DNA of 62,472 nucleotides from assembly GCA_030066875.1 (NCBI GenBank), contig JASJAS010000008.1:1-62472 (forward strand), written 5' to 3'. The position numbers and the translations under genes are program-made. A model generated the notes under the pieces. The model did not search any database. It worked only from the letters and a program-made list of their open reading frames with translations, and was not told where the DNA came from. Shown here in pieces: positions 23,447 through 31,448 of the stretch (the stretch's first letter is position 1; every line of letters begins with the position of its first letter). This DNA is from Acidimicrobiia bacterium (GTDB lineage: Bacteria; Actinomycetota; Acidimicrobiia; Spongiisociales; UBA5794).

Positions 23447-25246
23447 TTGAACCGAGCGTGGCGTGGCCGCACCGCGGTGTGGCTGGGCTTCTTCGCGGTT
23501 GCATTGCTTGTCGCCGCCTGCGACGACTCGCCGGGTGCTGAGTCGTCACTCACGACTTCGCCGACGACCACCGCCGCGCCGCAACCGGTGACCTCAGCGC
23601 CGACGACGACCACCCTTGCCGAAACGACCACGACCCCGGCACCAAACCTGAAGCCAACCGGAGGAGAGGCGGTCATCGGTCTTACTCGGGACCAAGAGCC
23701 ACCGACGTTGAACCCCTTCCAACCGGGCGGCGACAAGCTCGTCGTAGCAATGATCGGCCAGGCCTATCTGACGGGTGTCTACGACATCGACGGCGTCACG
23801 CTCGAGCTCGTCCCCGAGGTCGTCACCGAACTGCCGTCCGTCGACAACGGCGGAGTTGTTATCAACGAAGACGGTTCCATGACGGTGCAGTACACCATCC
23901 GCGAGGAAGCCCGCTGGGCAGACGGTACGCCGATAAGCGGTGACGACTTCGAGTTCACTCTCCAGACCATCCTCGACCCGAACCTCCCGATCAACAAGGA
24001 CGTCTATCAGGACATCGTTGGCTACGAGGCCGGCAGGAAGAGCTTCCGGTTCACGTTGGTGGCGCCGACGGTCAGATATGAGCTGCTATTCGGCACGATC
24101 CTCCCCAAACACGACGTGGAGGGTTCCGACTTCGAGAACGACTGGAACGACAGCATCTGGGTCTCCGGCGGTCCCTTTGTGTTCGAGTCGTGGGAGAAAG
24201 GTCAGGCAATCCGGCTGGTTCGCAACGAGAACTACTGGAAGATTGACGAGGAATCCGGTTTGGATCTGCCTTTCCTCGACGGTCTGCGTTTCCAGTTCGT
24301 GGAGGACAACGAGTCGTTGGTTGCCAGATTCAAAGGCCGGATTCTCGATGTAGTTCGCCCGCCCAATTCGGCTATTCCCGAGCTGCATGAACTCGAGGCA
24401 GAGGGCATTGTGGTGGAGGCGCTGAGCGGCACCCTGTGGGAGCACCTGAACTTCCAGTTCGGGCCGGGTCGCTTCGAACGCAATCCGGCGTCGGCCAATG
24501 AGAACGTGGACTATCGCCGAGCCGTGGCCCACGCCATCGACCGCCAACGCATTGTGGACGAATTGGTCGGAGAGGGGGCTGTTCCATTGCAGTCATTCGT
24601 CGGGCAGTACATACCGGTGGCACCCGAAATGACGTGGGAGAAGTATGGGTACGACGTTGCGCTTGCTCGGGAGTATGCGATCGCCGCGTGGACGGACCTC
24701 GGGGTCGAACAACTGACGACGGTCTTTACGACAACGTCGAACGTGGACGAACGGGTCCGTATCTCTGAACTACTCGCCGAAATGATGGCTGAGGTCGGCA
24801 TTGTCTATGAGAACCAGCTCGAGATATCGCAACTCTTCTTCGACGAGACGCTCCGCGCAGGCACCTGGGACCTCGGGCAGTGGGCCTGGAATGGGGGGCC
24901 CGGATTCTCCGGACTGCTTGGTGTGCTCAACGAGTTCGATCCGGCGGCGGCACCCGGCGTCGGATTCAACTATTACCGGTGGGGGACGGAGGAGTCATCT
25001 GTGGTCAACGAGTTCACAGAGCGCTACTCCGAGATTCTCGCCGCCCTCAGCTCATCGATCGATCCTGACGTAGTCGAACCGCTGGCGCGCGAGGCCGAGG
25101 GCATCCTCGCCGACCAGGTCGTGATCATTCCGCTGTACGCCCGAATCGACGCTGCAGCGGTGTGGGCGGACACCATCGGCGGGTTCAAACACAACCCGAC
25201 CGCGGCGACGCTCACTTGGAATGTGGAGGACTGGTATCACCTCTGA
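23447..25246 (+). CDS. Family 5 (peptide/nickel) ABC substrate-binding lipoprotein, canonical domain order
   Basis: Lipobox LVAAC, Thr-rich linker, DQEPPTLNP, YTIREEARWADGTPISGDDF, SGGPF, RNENYW, WEHLNF, terminal WNVEDW. Confidence 0.93.
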   Translation: MNRAWRGRTAVWLGFFAVALLVAACDDSPGAESSLTTSPTTTAAPQPVTSAPTTTTLAETTTTPAPNLKPTGGEAVIGLTRDQEPPTLNPFQPGGDKLVVAMIGQAYLTGVYDIDGVTLELVPEVVTELPSVDNGGVVINEDGSMTVQYTIREEARWADGTPISGDDFEFTLQTILDPNLPINKDVYQDIVGYEAGRKSFRFTLVAPTVRYELLFGTILPKHDVEGSDFENDWNDSIWVSGGPFVFESWEKGQAIRLVRNENYWKIDEESGLDLPFLDGLRFQFVEDNESLVARFKGRILDVVRPPNSAIPELHELEAEGIVVEALSGTLWEHLNFQFGPGRFERNPASANENVDYRRAVAHAIDRQRIVDELVGEGAVPLQSFVGQYIPVAPEMTWEKYGYDVALAREYAIAAWTDLGVEQLTTVFTTTSNVDERVRISELLAEMMAEVGIVYENQLEISQLFFDETLRAGTWDLGQWAWNGGPGFSGLLGVLNEFDPAAAPGVGFNYYRWGTEESSVVNEFTERYSEILAALSSSIDPDVVEPLAREAEGILADQVVIIPLYARIDAAAVWADTIGGFKHNPTAATLTWNVEDWYHL

Positions 25247-25313: not shown

Positions 25314-25441
25314 GTATGACCCTGTCAGAAAATGGCTGGGCAGAGCTTTGCGTTTTTATTCAGCAGCGTTAGCCTGCACCATTAGCTGGCCCCATTCGGG
25401 CCAGACTTCGCGAACTGTTCTCGTATGGAGGAGACAGAATC

Positions 25442-27205
25442 TTGAGAAAACCGAACCTGGTATGGCGCTTGCTCGCCATCCTCGCCGTGTTCAGTCTCAT
25501 TGTCGCTGCGTGTGGCGACGATGACGAGGGCACCGGCGAAACCACAACTGCTGCGCCGACGACGACGGAGGCACCGACGACGACTGCAGCACCGACCACG
25601 ACGACGACCACCACGTTGCCAGAGCCAGAAGGGCAAGCACCGGTGGAAGGCGCCGCGATGTCGGTGACTTACAACATCCACCCGGATGCAACGTGGTCTG
25701 ATGGTGTTGCTGTGACGGCTGCAGACTTCGCGTTCTCCCATGAGATCATCATGAACCCGGACCTCGACATTCTGTCGCGGGAGGGGAACAACAAGATCAT
25801 CAATTGGGAGATCATCGACGACAAGACGATCCGTTTCGACTTCGGTGAGGTCTACGCCCCGTGGCAGACCCTGTGGGCGACCACCGGCATCCTTCCTGAG
25901 CACGAGCTCGATGGCAAAGACTTCGACTCGTACTGGGATGAGCAGATCACTCTTGGTTCCGGCCCGTTCATCTTCAAGGAGTGGGTGAAGGACCAACAGA
26001 TCGTTCTCGAGCGGAACCCGAACTACTGGCGCGACACGTTTGTAGACGGCACGCCGGTTGGTGACGTGCAGACGATCATCATCCCGTTCCTCGAGGATTC
26101 GCAGACCCAGGTCCAGGCTCTCCGTGGCCGCGAGATCGATATGTTCTATCCGCAGCCGCAGCTCGACCTCGTCGAGCAGGTAGCAGGGATCGAAGGTGTG
26201 ACATCCGAGGCCGGGCTCGGCCCGGTGTGGGAGCACTTCGACTTCAACCACTCGGATCCGCTGCTGTCGCAGACGTTCATTCGCCAGGCGATCGCCAAGG
26301 GCATTGATCGGGCTGCGATCGTTGAGGCGATCATCCAGCCGCTAGCGCCGGCCGCGGTGCCGCTGAACAACTCGATCTGGATGAACGGAACTGCGTTCTA
26401 TCAGGACCATTTCAGCCAGTTCGACTATGACCCGGTGGGTGCCGAAGCCCTGCTGACGGACAACGGCTGCGCCAAGGGCGGCGACGGTGTATATGAGTGC
26501 GGTGGCGAGCGGCTGTCCTTCACCTGGACGACCACCGCCGGCAATGAAGCACGTGAGCTGCAGTTCGAGATCGCTCAGCAGCAGCTGGCCCAGATCGGCA
26601 TCGAGGTGACGCCGAAGTTTGGTCCTGCGAGCGAGGTGTTCGCCGATGAGAACTTCTACGGCGACAACTCCGCATGGCAGGTCTTCAACTTCGCCTGGGT
26701 TGGAAGCCCGGACCCGGCCGGTAGCAACACCCTCTACTACTGCGAAGGTGATGCTCCCAACGGCTTCGGTTCGATCAACAACCTGCGGTACTGCGATGAG
26801 GAAGTTGATGCCCTTATCCGCTCAACCGACGGTCTGGTCGATCCCGCCGCACGCGCTGCTGCCTACAACGAGGCAGATGAGATGTGGCTCGCCGAGGTTC
26901 CGCTGATCCCGATGTATCAGAAGCCGACCTTCTTCGCCTGGTACACCGACATCGTCGGTCCCGCGGACAACGCCACTCAGGTGGGTCCGATGTGGAACGT
27001 TGAGGCCTGGACCGGGGCCGAGCAGATCGTGTTCGGTGCTGACCAGCAGCCGGATAGCTTGAATCAGTACACCCCGGACGGAAACCTGTTTGCCGCCACC
27101 CTCGTGGCCGGCGCAGTCCAGCAGGGTGCGTACACGATCCTTCCGGACTTCTCATACGTCCCGAACCTGATCGAGTCGGCCGACGTTACTCTCTACGAGG
27201 AGTAA
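25442..27205 (+). CDS. Family 5 ABC substrate-binding lipoprotein, circularly permuted
   Basis: Lipobox IVAAC, Thr-rich linker, then directly YNIHPDATWSDG; the usual N-terminal segment (IVFGADQQPDSLN...GAY...PDFSYVPNL) follows WNVEAW at the C terminus; TTG start with GGAGGA RBS. Confidence 0.9.
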   Translation: MRKPNLVWRLLAILAVFSLIVAACGDDDEGTGETTTAAPTTTEAPTTTAAPTTTTTTTLPEPEGQAPVEGAAMSVTYNIHPDATWSDGVAVTAADFAFSHEIIMNPDLDILSREGNNKIINWEIIDDKTIRFDFGEVYAPWQTLWATTGILPEHELDGKDFDSYWDEQITLGSGPFIFKEWVKDQQIVLERNPNYWRDTFVDGTPVGDVQTIIIPFLEDSQTQVQALRGREIDMFYPQPQLDLVEQVAGIEGVTSEAGLGPVWEHFDFNHSDPLLSQTFIRQAIAKGIDRAAIVEAIIQPLAPAAVPLNNSIWMNGTAFYQDHFSQFDYDPVGAEALLTDNGCAKGGDGVYECGGERLSFTWTTTAGNEARELQFEIAQQQLAQIGIEVTPKFGPASEVFADENFYGDNSAWQVFNFAWVGSPDPAGSNTLYYCEGDAPNGFGSINNLRYCDEEVDALIRSTDGLVDPAARAAAYNEADEMWLAEVPLIPMYQKPTFFAWYTDIVGPADNATQVGPMWNVEAWTGAEQIVFGADQQPDSLNQYTPDGNLFAATLVAGAVQQGAYTILPDFSYVPNLIESADVTLYEE

Positions 27206-27236: not shown

Positions 27237-27266
27237 ATTGAAGGGGGCCTCCGGGCCCCCTTCAAT
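27237..27266 (+). terminator. 13 bp hairpin between the SBP and the permease (partial terminator or 3' stabiliser)
   Basis: ATTGAAGGGGGCC-TCCG-GGCCCCCTTCAAT, perfect stem, no U tract. Confidence 0.75.
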
Positions 27267-27364
27267 CGCGATTCAAGTCGGTCTTCCGATGGTCGCCCTG
27301 GGCTGACGATGCCCTCGCTGGGCCGCTAAGCTGCACCGCGCACGTCGATCATCGGGAGGCGACC

Positions 27365-28330
27365 ATCGGGACTTACATAATCCGTCGGCTGCTGTACAGC
27401 ATTCCCGTGCTGGTGATAGCTACGATGCTCATCTTCTTTGGGATGTCCCTCGTCACCGACCCGATTTCCCAGATCCGCCTGGTGCCCGATGTCAGCCAAC
27501 AGACCATCCAGAACATCGTCGATCGGAAGCACTTGGATGACCCGGTCATCGTGCAATATGGGTTCTGGCTGAAGGACGTCTTCACCAATCAGTTTGGTAC
27601 CACCATGCTGGGCGACAAGCCGATCTGGCCCGACCTGAGCCGGGCCATGTGGCAGACCGCCCAGCTCGTACTGGTTGCGGAGTTCATCGCCGTGGCCATC
27701 GCAATCGTGCTCGGTGTCCTGGCCGCCAAGAAGCAATACTCGTTCTTCGACTACGCCACCACCACCATCAGCTTCTTCGGCTTCTCCGTCCCGATCTTCT
27801 GGTTCGCGCTGATCCTGCAATGGCTGACGGTGAGCCTGTTCCTGGCCACAGGCTTCCGATTAGCCTATACCTTCGGACTCAGTTCGCCGGACCCGGCGAA
27901 CTGGTTCATCGATCGACTCCAGCACATGATCCTGCCGGTGACCGCGCTGGCGTATGTGAGCATCGCCCAGTACAGCCGCTACATGCGGTCGTCGATGCTC
28001 GATGTGCTCCACTCCGACTATGTGCGGACGGCAAAAGCCAAAGGCCTCAGCGACCGGACTGTGACGATGAAGCACGCCCTGCGAAACGCGTTGATCCCGC
28101 TCGTGACCGTTGTCGCATTGAACGTGGGAGCACTGCTGGGCGGGGTTGTGATCACGGAGACCATCTTCGCCTGGCCCGGCATGGGCAAGTTGTTCATCAC
28201 CGCGTTGGCGCGCGCTGAGCTCTATACGCTGATGGCTTGGATGCTCGTGGCCGGGGTGATCATCATCGTGTTCAACTTGCTGGCGGACATACTGTACGCG
28301 GCTCTCGACCCACGGATTCGTTATGAGTGA
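27365..28330 (+). CDS. oppB: OppB/DppB-type ABC permease
   Basis: xGTYIIRRLLYSIPVL N terminus, EAA loop SDYVRTAKAKGL, TIFAWPGMG, LDPRIR; homology extends upstream to ATC 27365 (first standard start is GTG 27407). Confidence 0.93.
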   Translation: MGTYIIRRLLYSIPVLVIATMLIFFGMSLVTDPISQIRLVPDVSQQTIQNIVDRKHLDDPVIVQYGFWLKDVFTNQFGTTMLGDKPIWPDLSRAMWQTAQLVLVAEFIAVAIAIVLGVLAAKKQYSFFDYATTTISFFGFSVPIFWFALILQWLTVSLFLATGFRLAYTFGLSSPDPANWFIDRLQHMILPVTALAYVSIAQYSRYMRSSMLDVLHSDYVRTAKAKGLSDRTVTMKHALRNALIPLVTVVALNVGALLGGVVITETIFAWPGMGKLFITALARAELYTLMAWMLVAGVIIIVFNLLADILYAALDPRIRYE

Positions 28331-29372
28331 TCGACATGACCCCGGCCGGCCCATCCACACCAAGGGTGCCGACGACCTCGCCGAGACGGAAGGCGCGACC
28401 GAGGCCTGGACAGAGCTAGCCGGCGGCAAGACGCCACCGGCGGCCGTTGAACGCCCCGCAACCGACTTGGAGGCCCGCCTCGAAGCCGAGCTGCTACGGG
28501 AAGGGCTCGAGGTCGAGCACCTCACCCAGTGGCAGCTGATCCGGCGGAAGTTCCTTCAGCACAAACTCGCGGTGGTGAGCCTGATCGTCCTCGTGATCAT
28601 CATCCTTGCCGGCGTATTTGCCGGGACCATTGCCCCGTACGGATTCGAGGAGATCGATCTACAGAACCGCTCGCAGGCGCCGACCCTCGACGGGTTCCAC
28701 ATCATGGGGACCGACAAGATAGGGCGGGACTACTTCTCGCGCGTGCTGTTCGGCACCCGAACCTCGCTGATCGTTGCGAGCATCGTGGCCGGTGTATCCA
28801 CCCTGATCGGGACCGTCGTCGGCGGTCTGGCCGGCTACATGGGGGGAAGGACCGACAACTGGCTGATGCGGCTCACCGACCTGTTCCTCACACTGCCGGG
28901 ACTTGCGATTCTGCTCATCCTGTCAGCATTCCTTGGGCAGGGCTCGCCCATCCGGGTGGCCTTCATCCTGGCCTTCCTCTTCTGGACGGCCACCGCACGC
29001 ATCGTCCGCGGCGTGTTCCTGTCTTTGAGGGAGAAGGAGTTCGTCGAAGCGGCCAAGGCTGCCGGCGCCTCGGACGGGCGGATCATCTTCCGTCACATCC
29101 TTCCCAACGCCATGGGTCCGATCATCGTTTCGATGACCCTGACGGTGGCCACTGCGATCCTGGTCGAGGCGGCACTGTCCTTCCTCGGGTTTGGGATCCA
29201 GCCGCCCAATCCAGCACTTGGCAAGCTCATCGCGGACGGGCAGGATTCGATGACAACCCAGTGGTGGCTGGTCACCATGCCCGGTTTGCTCATCGTGACC
29301 ATCTCGCTGTGTATCAACTTCATCGGTGACGGCTTACGGGACGCCCTCGACCCGACACAGGTGATCTCATGA
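28323..29372 (+). CDS. oppC: OppC/DppC-type ABC permease
   Basis: HIMGTDKIGRDYFSR, EFVEAAKAAGASD, EAALSFLGFG, FIGDGLRDALDP. Confidence 0.95.
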   Translation: MSDRHDPGRPIHTKGADDLAETEGATEAWTELAGGKTPPAAVERPATDLEARLEAELLREGLEVEHLTQWQLIRRKFLQHKLAVVSLIVLVIIILAGVFAGTIAPYGFEEIDLQNRSQAPTLDGFHIMGTDKIGRDYFSRVLFGTRTSLIVASIVAGVSTLIGTVVGGLAGYMGGRTDNWLMRLTDLFLTLPGLAILLILSAFLGQGSPIRVAFILAFLFWTATARIVRGVFLSLREKEFVEAAKAAGASDGRIIFRHILPNAMGPIIVSMTLTVATAILVEAALSFLGFGIQPPNPALGKLIADGQDSMTTQWWLVTMPGLLIVTISLCINFIGDGLRDALDPTQVIS

Positions 29373-30427
29373 CGCAAGCGGCTCTCAAACTCTCAGATCT
29401 AACAGTCGAGTTCGACACCGTCGATGGCGTGGTCCATGCGGTTGACGGTGTCAGTTACGAGGTGTATCCCGGTGAGGTACTCGCCGTTGTCGGTGAGTCC
29501 GGCTCCGGCAAGAGCGTCACGTACCTGGCGGTGATGGGACTGCTCCCGAAGCCGGCCGGTCGTGTAACGAAGGGCGAGGTTTGGTTCGAAGGCGAGAACC
29601 TCGTTGGACTGACCGACAAGGAAATGGAGCACATACGCGGCAACCGGATGGCCATGGTCTTCCAGGACCCCATGACGTCGCTCAATCCGGTCTTCACTGT
29701 TGGCTACCAGCTTGCCGAAGCGCTGCAGACCCACAATCCGGACATGTCGGATGAGGCTGCCAAAGATCGGGCGGTGTATCTGTTGTCCGCAGTCGGTGTG
29801 CCCGAACCTGAGACCAGGTTCGACCAATACCCTCACGAATACTCGGGCGGCATGCGGCAACGGGCCATGATCGCCATGGCAATGGCCAACGAACCGGCAC
29901 TGCTCATCGCTGACGAACCAACGACTGCGCTCGATGTGACCATCCAGGCGCAAGTGATCGAGGTGATGAAGACCGCGCAGCGGGAAACCAACGCGGCCAC
30001 CATCCTGATCACGCATGACCTCGGGCTGGTAGCCGAACTGGCCGACCGGGTGGTCGTCATGTACGGCGGCAAGGTCGTCGAGACAGGCACCATCGACGAG
30101 ATCTTCCACTCTCCGCGTCATCCCTACACGCTGGGCTTGATGATGAGCTTGCCTCGGCTCACGGTGAACCTGACCAGGCTGCGGCCGATCCCAGGTCAGC
30201 CGCCGAGCCTGATCAATCGTCCGCCGGGGTGTGCGTTCCACCCCCGCTGTGGCATGTCGGCGGGGAGGGAGATTTGCCGGCAAGAGGTTCCGACCCTGGC
30301 GAGTACCAATGGAGGCGGCCATCACTCGGCCTGCCACTTCTTCACGGAGGTCGCTCGGGAGCTGGAGATGCAGGCTGCGGATCTCGGGATTCAGGCCGAA
30401 GGGGGTGTTCTCGATGACGTCGGCTGA
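29369..30427 (+). CDS. oppD: OppD-type ABC ATP-binding protein
   Basis: GESGSGKS, YPHEYSGGMRQR, ADEPTTALDV, HPYT, Cys-rich oligo_HPY tail. Confidence 0.96.
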   Translation: MTQAALKLSDLTVEFDTVDGVVHAVDGVSYEVYPGEVLAVVGESGSGKSVTYLAVMGLLPKPAGRVTKGEVWFEGENLVGLTDKEMEHIRGNRMAMVFQDPMTSLNPVFTVGYQLAEALQTHNPDMSDEAAKDRAVYLLSAVGVPEPETRFDQYPHEYSGGMRQRAMIAMAMANEPALLIADEPTTALDVTIQAQVIEVMKTAQRETNAATILITHDLGLVAELADRVVVMYGGKVVETGTIDEIFHSPRHPYTLGLMMSLPRLTVNLTRLRPIPGQPPSLINRPPGCAFHPRCGMSAGREICRQEVPTLASTNGGGHHSACHFFTEVARELEMQAADLGIQAEGGVLDDVG

Positions 30428-31448
30428 TACAGAAACGACGCCGACCGCCAATGGCAGCGAGATCATCCGGGCCGAGGATCTGAAGGTGCACTTCCCGATC
30501 ATGGCCGGTATCCGGCGCCACCAGGTGGGGACCGTATACGCCGTCGACGGACTCGATTTCGAAGTCCAGAAAGGCGAGACGCTCGGCCTGGTCGGTGAGT
30601 CGGGATGCGGCAAGTCGACGACGGCCCGGGCAGTGATGCGGCTCAACAACATCACGGAAGGCAAGGTCTACTTCGAGGGCACCGACATCACGAATCTGAG
30701 TCGCAAGGCGATGCGCCCGTTCCGCAAGCGGCTGCAAATAGTGTTCCAGGACCCGTATGCGTCGTTGAATCCGCGGATGACAGTGCATGACATCATTGCC
30801 GAGCCTTTGAAGGTCCATGACGTCGGCACCAAAGAGGAACGCAGTGAGCGGGTTGGGCAGCTGCTCGAGACGGTGCAGCTGAGCCCCGAGCACGGGAACC
30901 GATTCCCGCACGAGTTCTCGGGGGGCCAGCGGCAACGTATCGGTGTTGCTCGAGCCCTGGCCTTGAACCCTGAGGTGATGATCCTGGATGAGCCAGTGTC
31001 GGCGCTCGATGTGTCGATTCAGGCACAGGTGATCAACCTTCTCGAAGCCATTCAGGAGGAGTTCGGGCTCGCCTACCTGTTCATTGCCCACGATCTCTCG
31101 GTGGTTCGTCACATTTGCGACAGGGTCGCCGTGATGTACCTGGGCAAGATCGTGGAGATCGGGCCCCGCGACCAGATCTTCGAGGATCCGAAGCACCCCT
31201 ACACGAAGGCGCTTCTGTCGGCGGTGCCGATCCCGGAGCCGCGCGGCCGCGAGGAGCGAGGTCGTATCGTCTTAGAGGGCGACGTGCCGACGCCCGTGGA
31301 TCCTCCGTCGGGTTGCAGGTTCCGTACTCGGTGCTGGATGGCTCAAGGGATCTGTGCGGAGGAGGAACCCCCGTTGGTTGGCGACGGTCACCGGGCGGCG
31401 TGTCACTTCGTCGACAGCGTCGTGATGCCACCTTCGGTCAAGGCCTGA
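30414..31448 (+). CDS. oppF: OppF-type ABC ATP-binding protein
   Basis: GESGCGKST, FPHEFSGGQRQR, DEPVSALDVS, HPYT, PPSGCRF; start set at ATG 30414. Confidence 0.96.
   Translation: MTSADTETTPTANGSEIIRAEDLKVHFPIMAGIRRHQVGTVYAVDGLDFEVQKGETLGLVGESGCGKSTTARAVMRLNNITEGKVYFEGTDITNLSRKAMRPFRKRLQIVFQDPYASLNPRMTVHDIIAEPLKVHDVGTKEERSERVGQLLETVQLSPEHGNRFPHEFSGGQRQRIGVARALALNPEVMILDEPVSALDVSIQAQVINLLEAIQEEFGLAYLFIAHDLSVVRHICDRVAVMYLGKIVEIGPRDQIFEDPKHPYTKALLSAVPIPEPRGREERGRIVLEGDVPTPVDPPSGCRFRTRCWMAQGICAEEEPPLVGDGHRAACHFVDSVVMPPSVKA

Follow-up and report, generated by a model that had tools for sequence, protein, structure and literature searches.

Can a bacterial binding protein of the OppA type carry its N-terminal segment at the end of the chain and still serve as a working receptor? 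This question was raised by a gene in a 62,472-nucleotide stretch of DNA (hereafter, the window) from an Acidimicrobiia bacterium (contig JASJAS010000008.1 of GenBank assembly GCA_030066875.1). The gene, SBP2 (25442–27205, plus strand, as for all features given below), starts with TTG and encodes a family-5 (cluster C, OppA-like) solute-binding protein (SBP) of 587 aa, as assigned from its open reading frame (ORF) and the Pfam model PF00496. An earlier interpretation made from the letters of the window (the sequence-only reading) had proposed that about 60 N-terminal residues of this lipoprotein have moved to its C terminus. Sequence, profile, model, selection and phylogeny all agreed with this proposal. 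We regard SBP2 as very probably (roughly 0.9) a cluster C protein whose chain has been circularly permuted in nature and which serves the adjacent OppBCDF-type importer as a tethered lipoprotein.

Swapped segment order in SBP2

The closest canonical relative of SBP2, L075 from a Nitriliruptorales metagenome-assembled genome (MAG), aligned with it by BLASTP in two pieces. SBP2 residues 63–523 corresponded to L075 residues 110–551 (52% identity, E 2e-168), and the tail at residues 529–583 corresponded to L075 residues 61–116 (54% identity, E 8e-15). The same arrangement was found against SBP1, the canonical-order family-5 lipoprotein of 599 aa encoded at 23447–25246 (ORF, Pfam and BLASTP), with residues 55–523 matching 125–596 (E 7e-46) and residues 524–566 matching 71–114 (E 3e-4). 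A split alignment had been suggested with the sequence-only reading as a check, a tail without similarity to the canonical N terminus being the outcome that would speak against it; both comparisons returned two rotated collinear segments, and the tail did align to the canonical N terminus. Profile comparison by hhalign led to the same result: a profile of 20 tails (alignment A2) matched a profile of nine canonical relatives (alignment A3) with a probability of 97.9% and an E value of 6.4e-13, and mapped to canonical columns 66–124, just ahead of the core. When the profile of 27 homologues (alignment A1) was compared with PDB sequences, residues 48–105 of EppA (6wm6) fell on profile positions 519–574 and residues 107–560 on positions 63–516, and 106 PDB cluster C sequences matched the SBP2-family profile at E ≤ 1e-3. 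Permuted sequences that were rotated in silico aligned collinearly with canonical relatives using MAFFT. SBP2 thus shows what defines a circular permutation in sequence: two collinear segments that have changed places, a junction of the former termini and a single site of new ones. The support for the permuted order is far above chance expectation.

Taken alone, the tail match to SBP1 is a modest one, covering 44 residues with 32% identity and an E value of 3e-4, and the Pfam and NCBIfam models are silent on the tail. These observations would suit a protein that simply lacks the N-terminal segment and ends in 64 residues of an unrelated or non-integrated extension resembling that segment by chance. 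The match of the tail to L075 (54%, E 8e-15) and the hhalign result (E 6.4e-13) argue against this, as do a secondary structure identical to that of the canonical segment and purifying selection equal to that on the core (both described below). The silence of Pfam is also matched in canonical proteins, where the model ‘SBP_bac_5 Middle’ omits the N-terminal segment as well. An unrelated tail is therefore very improbable, and this explanation was rejected on the basis of the hhalign, L075 BLASTP and substitution-rate results.

As a member of its family, SBP2 is unambiguous: PF00496 matched aa 74–433 with 208.8 bits against a cut-off of 32.4. Among the NCBIfam models, no equivalog reached its cut-off for SBP2 (best, TIGR04028 with 110 bits vs 468), and a scan of the isolated tail returned no match. 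The canonical chain order of SBP_bac_5/cluster C proteins is not found in SBP2, where the unit follows WNVEAW at aa 528–587. SBP2 is thus a family homologue and a topological variant. Because ‘SBP_bac_5 Middle’ covers only the core in both SBP1 (starting at residue 141) and SBP2, the rearrangement is unseen by annotation.

Anatomy of the rotated chain

The chain of SBP2 begins with a signal peptide (25442–25513) that ends in a lipobox (..LIVAAC, Cys24) and was delimited from alignment A1 and from a helix at aa 7–21 in the AlphaFold2 (AF2) model. The sequence MRKPNLVWRLLAILAVFSLIVAAC has the form known from bacterial lipoproteins, A23 and C24 are invariant in the 27 homologues of A1, and lipidation is predicted. 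A Thr/Pro/Ala-rich low-complexity tether follows (aa 25–62, 25514–25627), recognised from its sequence and from the predicted local distance difference test (pLDDT), which was < 50 over residues 1–63; the length and sequence of this tether vary between homologues. The next ten residues, ‘EGQAPVEGAA’ (aa 63–72, 25628–25657), may be what remains of the final strand and turn of segment A, the N-terminal segment of canonical proteins. The core, segment B (aa 73–523, 25658–27010), was delimited by BLASTP, the PDB profile alignment and the rotated MAFFT alignment. It starts at 25658 with M73 of ‘MSVTYNIHPDATWSDG’, has MSVTYNI (aa 73–79) as its first strand, is collinear with the canonical residues past the N-terminal segment and ends in the canonical C-terminal motif WNVEAW523.

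Directly after this motif, the joint T524-G-A-E527 (27011–27022), defined by motif and pLDDT, bridges what are the C and N termini in canonical proteins. It reads W523-T-G-A-E-Q528, about four residues, and the motif WN[VI]xxW-[TSA]G-xxx-[IV] was present in every permuted protein examined. The stretch that begins with T524 of ‘TGAEQIVFGADQQ...’ at 27011 extends to 27202, and its larger part is the relocated strand-helix-strand-strand-strand unit, segment A′ (aa 528–587, 27023–27202), delimited by BLASTP, hhalign, the AF2 model and substitution rates. The coordinates given in the sequence-only reading were all correct, including that of G72 in ‘GGEAVIGL’ of SBP1 at 23660, and its joint of about three residues came out at three to four.

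In most permuted members, a pair of cysteines lies near the newly created N-terminal end (G-[ED]-C-P-D-A-F-C-V; A1 columns ca. 88–100, corresponding to SBP2 aa 63–72). The pair flanks the former hairpin turn (canonical T-E-D-P-F-T) and may act as a disulfide staple.

Structure models

The AF2 model of SBP2 had a mean pLDDT of 80 and a predicted template modelling score of 0.75, and the block containing the joint (residues 521–530) reached a pLDDT of 94. In the tail, strands (E) and a helix (H) were modelled at E528–533, H550–559, E564–566, E572–574 and E577–584 with pLDDT values of 76–90. The N-terminal unit of the canonical sister was modelled as E60–65, H82–91, E96–98, E104–106 and E114–117, with the core strand E120–126 directly next to it. 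The order and spacing of these elements were identical in the SBP2 tail and in the canonical unit (E-22-H-14-E-8-E, i.e., 22, 14 and 8 residues). The same elements at the same spacing in both models place the cut site, as modelled, in the tight turn of a β-hairpin, where the final strand of the unit gives way to the first one of the core.

The model of SBP2 also showed the OppA-type three-domain fold. Foldseek matched it to OppA of Mycobacterium tuberculosis (Mtb), EppA, NikZ and AppA with a probability of 1.00 and TM scores of 0.65–0.81 on the target, Mtb OppA and EppA being the best matches. Because the Foldseek alignment keeps chain order, it should lose the tail of a permuted protein. Against EppA (6wm7), 474 columns were aligned for SBP2 (TM 0.74) and 537 for the canonical sister (TM 0.88), a deficit of 63 columns, which is about the length of the tail. 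The models thus suggest that SBP2, after rotation, would have the same three-dimensional fold as its canonical relatives.

Conservation and selection

The permuted architecture was common to more than 120 full-length homologues of 560–590 aa with 51%–76% identity to SBP2. In the 27 homologues of A1, the tail residues F531, P537, N541, G547, G562, A563, P568, Y572 and L576 were invariant or nearly so. The ratio of nonsynonymous to synonymous substitution rates (dN/dS; Nei-Gojobori, summed over 18–19 pairs) came to 0.13 in the tail and 0.14 in the core, and reading frames were intact in all 64 permuted proteins (64/64). The relocated unit belongs integrally to SBP2 and is under selection.

The source MAG is fragmented (171 contigs, 81% complete), and tandem SBP genes occur, both in the window (SBP1–SBP2) and in locus L017 with two canonical copies. 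A misassembly could in principle create such a chain order on a fragmented genome, and in tandem genes a 5′-truncated SBP gene could run into the 5′ remainder of the next SBP gene, itself lost, to give a non-functional product. The search for homologues of the same order that had been proposed with the sequence-only reading bears directly on this. The architecture was found at about 65 loci in species-representative genomes, most of them labelled as Acidimicrobiia MAGs, with the same joint motif in independent assemblies; two permuted copies lie on one MAG deposited as a single 2.6-Mb chromosome. Misassembly is excluded by the independence of these loci and by the copies on the single-chromosome deposit. 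Decay is contradicted by the intact frames, by the dN/dS of 0.13–0.14, by the conserved lipobox and by the intact translocator 3′ of the gene. Fusion and trimming are themselves the proposed origin of SBP2, yet the product is a maintained gene. The probability of an artefact or a decayed gene is therefore negligible, and this explanation was rejected.

The closest relative of SBP2 (75%–80% identity) is L018, on a 3.8-kb contig (JBFIZG010000380.1) of a MAG labelled Gemmatimonadales, and several other loci carry Acidobacteriota labels. Mis-binning or mislabelling seems a likelier source of these labels than transfer.

Origin of the permutation

In a maximum likelihood tree of 79 cores, the permuted proteins (64/64) formed one clade nested among canonical ones, with a Shimodaira–Hasegawa-like approximate likelihood ratio test value of 100 and a single state change. 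Its nearest outgroups were the canonical proteins L075, L076 and L077 from Nitriliruptorales and Egibacteraceae MAGs. The permutation arose once, in an ancestor resembling the canonical proteins of present Nitriliruptoria MAGs. SBP2 is thus not a one-off case but belongs to a clade of single origin. Among 201 genomes of the class, matches containing the tail were found only in the window's own taxonomic order (12 genomes, down to 34% identity), and other families have canonical relatives with 31%–41% identity. Separate permutations for the close (≥ 53%) and distant (33%–40%) permuted groups were considered and rejected; in the tree, the distant group (L001–L005 and L083) branches, on a long stem, from within the one permuted clade.

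The similarity to L075 was 55% for the SBP2 tail and 54% for the core, and the corresponding values for SBP1 were 27% and 33%. Because tail and core are equally similar to L075, the tail came from SBP2's own lineage. The most likely route would be that a tandem duplicate fused in frame and that both ends were then trimmed. Residues 110–116 of L075 aligned by BLASTP with SBP2 residues 63–69 and also, with weak similarity in either case, with residues 577–583. At the nucleotide level these correspond to 25628–25657 (EGQAPVE) and 27170–27202 (ESADVT..), where about 10 residues of the unit's last strand and turn seem to be present at both ends of the chain. Such doubling might have been left behind if the trim points overlapped once the duplicate had fused.

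A fast-evolving subclade within the permuted clade (L001–L005; e.g., L002:2954–4648) differs in gene order: the permuted gene is the last of its operon, after a permease and two ATPases. The two genes 3′ of it, identified by eye in translation, would encode a CaiB-like CoA-transferase and a long-chain acyl-CoA synthetase. This operon position and these neighbours suggest a changed substrate.

Paralogues and further rearrangements

The sequence-only reading had set SBP2 beside a canonical paralogue. SBP1 indeed has the canonical order, and it proved to be only distant kin (29%–33% identity) and no partner in the rearrangement. An SBP1 orthologue (above 31% identity) was not found in any of the 95 fetched loci, including those with permuted genes, and the SBP1–SBP2 tandem looks particular to this genome and those closely related to it. 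The idea that SBP1 was the donor or the partner in the permutation was rejected in view of its 27%–33% identity in both tail and core and its absence from other loci. From these comparisons, SBP1 is a bystander paralogue.

A different rearrangement was noted in a related canonical actinobacterial clade. The representative P0181 aligned with L011:2691–4397 in two swapped pieces, residues 45–400 with 206–564 (54% identity) and residues 409–569 with 45–204 (64% identity). In this one representative, about 160 N-terminal residues stand at the C terminus, the cut site is different, and the old termini are fused likewise (WNAQRW-TRTDGGDS-ITVAAEQE). Judged by this alignment, P0181 appears to be a second, independent circular permutation. 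Four further relatives of 900–1700 aa (P0175, P0213, P0222 and P0161) contain one canonical SBP core inside longer proteins and may be fusions.

Operon context

The SBP1/SBP2 tandem is preceded by a phosphoglycerate-mutase-like gene and secG. A Shine-Dalgarno-like GGAGGAG (25429–25435), read from the sequence, stands 6 nt ahead of the SBP2 TTG. Directly 3′ of SBP2, Pfam identified a translocator of OppB, OppC, OppD and OppF types, as expected for the family. The OppB-type permease (27365–28330) carries BPD_transp_1 plus its N-terminal domain, the OppC-type permease (28323–29372) carries OppC_N and BPD_transp_1, and the OppD-type ATPase (29369–30427) and the OppF-type ATPase (30414–31448) each carry ABC_tran and oligo_HPY. 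For the OppF type, the domains were matched on the ORF 30231–31448, and the start was set by eye at the ATG of ‘MTSADTE’, its probable position.

The gap between SBP2 and the permease contains a G+C-rich hairpin (27237–27266) with a 13-bp stem, a 4-nt loop and no T run, beginning 31 nt past the SBP2 stop. The RNA fold centroid was −31 kcal/mol, with z = −3.45 for the 95-nt stretch. This hairpin may act as a 3′ stabiliser or partial terminator, and its position would be consistent with differential expression of the SBP and the translocator. Internal terminators of this kind are reported for ABC (ATP-binding cassette) operons (PMC9045158). The intact frame, strong ribosome-binding site and flanking hairpin named in the sequence-only reading are thus all present.

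The start of the OppB-type gene deserves comment. In the region 27354–27410, the ATC at 27365 (IGTYIIRRLLYSIPVL) stands 5 nt after GGGAGG, and it is the probable start. The homologue in L014 begins with MGTFIARRLLYSIPVL, and the match to the Pfam model BPD_transp_1_N sets in at residue 4. Were the gene to start at its first ATG, GTG or TTG, namely GTG 27407, the conserved N terminus would be lost. Either the gene uses a non-canonical start codon, or the ATC reflects a base error.

Proposed function and alternatives

In the working that we propose, SBP2 would be a functional, membrane-tethered substrate-binding lipoprotein for the adjacent OppBCDF-type ABC importer. A mature canonical chain starts with a unit of about 60 residues (β1, α1 and three short strands), the last strand of which pairs as a hairpin with the first strand of the remainder. 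In SBP2, the chain after the lipid anchor and a linker of about 45 residues instead enters the fold at the second strand of this hairpin, runs through the whole core to WNxxW, crosses the four-residue joint and continues with the β1-α1-strands unit, ending with the first strand of the opened hairpin. Folded in this way, SBP2 would resemble OppA, bind its ligand in the cleft between the lobes and hand it over to OppBCDF. The ligand class, judged by family and operon, may be of the peptide or chelate type. Read most simply, the permutation makes almost no functional difference to binding.

Some observations weigh against this interpretation of SBP2 as a permuted, working receptor. Its equivalence to canonical proteins in three dimensions was read from pLDDT, secondary structure and Foldseek column counts. 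SBP2 and its nearest relatives have EGAAMSV in place of the CxxxFC pair found in most members, and the new N-terminal end may thus be less rigid in SBP2. Furthermore, no A-B-A′ duplication intermediate was found among the 150 best 50%-identity representatives.

One consequence of the rotation is certain: the tether leaves the folded body at a different surface point, at the opened hairpin and not at β1. The new attachment point of the lipid anchor claimed in the sequence-only reading follows from the order of the segments. What this shift means for docking is speculation. The geometric constraint is expected to be weak because the linker, of about 45 residues, is flexible.

The permutation might nevertheless be adaptive, in addition to and not in place of the explanation given above: re-siting of the tether, or a freed N-terminal region, could alter presentation to or recognition by OppB and OppC and could have driven fixation and radiation of the clade. 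That the tether enters the SBP2 fold at a different strand, as seen in the rotated alignment, fits this idea. In the Mtb DppABCD structures, DppA touches DppB through its N-terminal loop and its lipid anchor, and recognition of the DppA N-terminal region was proposed as a prerequisite for assembly of DppABCD (PMC10954201). Tethering was also raised as a possible reason by the authors who described the permuted TpMglB-2 (PMC4990184). The permuted clade has moreover radiated, with two copies in several genomes and the fast-evolving subclade at another operon position. On the other side, the low-complexity linker of about 45 residues (pLDDT < 50) should uncouple the anchor site from docking geometry, canonical lipoprotein paralogues such as SBP1 share the operon, and neutral fixation fits the data equally well. 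An adaptive role seems doubtful to us.

A broader generalisation can be formulated. At least two independent rotations occurred in this actinobacterial group, with cut sites after about 60 residues in the SBP2 clade vs about 160 in P0181. Family-5 SBPs may be unusually prone to permutation, given their abutting termini and tandem genes, and tethered lineages may repeatedly have fixed rotations as re-siting of the tether alters receptor presentation. We offer this only tentatively and think it rather unlikely. If it is true, the Acidimicrobiia clade could be set against the canonical sister with 54% identity as a natural matched pair for the effects of chain order on folding, tethering and docking.

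Cluster C binding proteins such as OppA, DppA and NikA are among the best-studied bacterial receptors and are used as scaffolds for biosensors and in studies of drug uptake. The SBP2 clade indicates that this fold tolerates the opening of one specific hairpin together with the fusion of its termini, and the opened hairpin could be a site at which domains can be inserted, or circular permutants engineered, without further search. The clade is also a natural system in which to ask whether chain order and tether position matter for the docking of lipoprotein SBPs, a question raised by the Mtb Dpp structures. In addition, it exposes an annotation gap: Pfam and NCBIfam models that cover only the ‘middle’ hide such rearrangements in routine annotation.

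Comparison with known systems

The best matches to SBP2 in sequence and fold were Mtb OppA (Rv1280c; 8j5u, 8j5q-t) and the EDTA-binding EppA (6wm6/6wm7). All of these share the three-domain OppA-type fold, the C-terminal WNxxW motif, a lipoprotein or periplasmic location and an OppBCDF-type partner. The chains of Mtb OppA and EppA start with the β1-α1 unit, whereas in SBP2 this unit comes last, and the identity is 22%–29%. Much closer are L075, L076 and L077 (Nitriliruptorales/Egibacteraceae MAGs; representative P0123), which have the same motifs and 50%–54% identity in the core and 55% in segment A. These proteins keep the canonical order, and their chains end 4–6 residues past WNxxW.

A natural precedent for the process exists outside cluster C. 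TpMglB-2 (Tp0684) of Treponema pallidum is a naturally circularly permuted ABC binding lipoprotein, classified as ‘Type Ic / Cluster Bc’ (Brautigam et al. 2016, PMC4990184). As in SBP2, the permutation is natural, affects an ABC binding lipoprotein and is conserved in the family; TpMglB-2 keeps ligand binding (PMC4990184). TpMglB-2 differs in belonging to cluster B (MglB/ribose type), with another fold, cut site and lineage, and is not a family-level homologue. SBP2, with the fold and sequence of cluster C, falls outside Cluster Bc, which comprises proteins with the MglB-like fold of cluster B; the relation between the two is an analogy of process, not membership. The sequence-only reading knew of no described natural permutant in this family; full-text literature searches agreed with it, having returned no description of a permuted family-5/cluster C SBP, and for cluster B one is published, TpMglB-2 (PMC4990184). 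The SBP2 clade therefore seems to be one independent instance of a recurrent, apparently undescribed phenomenon, and it stands out in that its single origin is well resolved and a canonical sister is close at hand.

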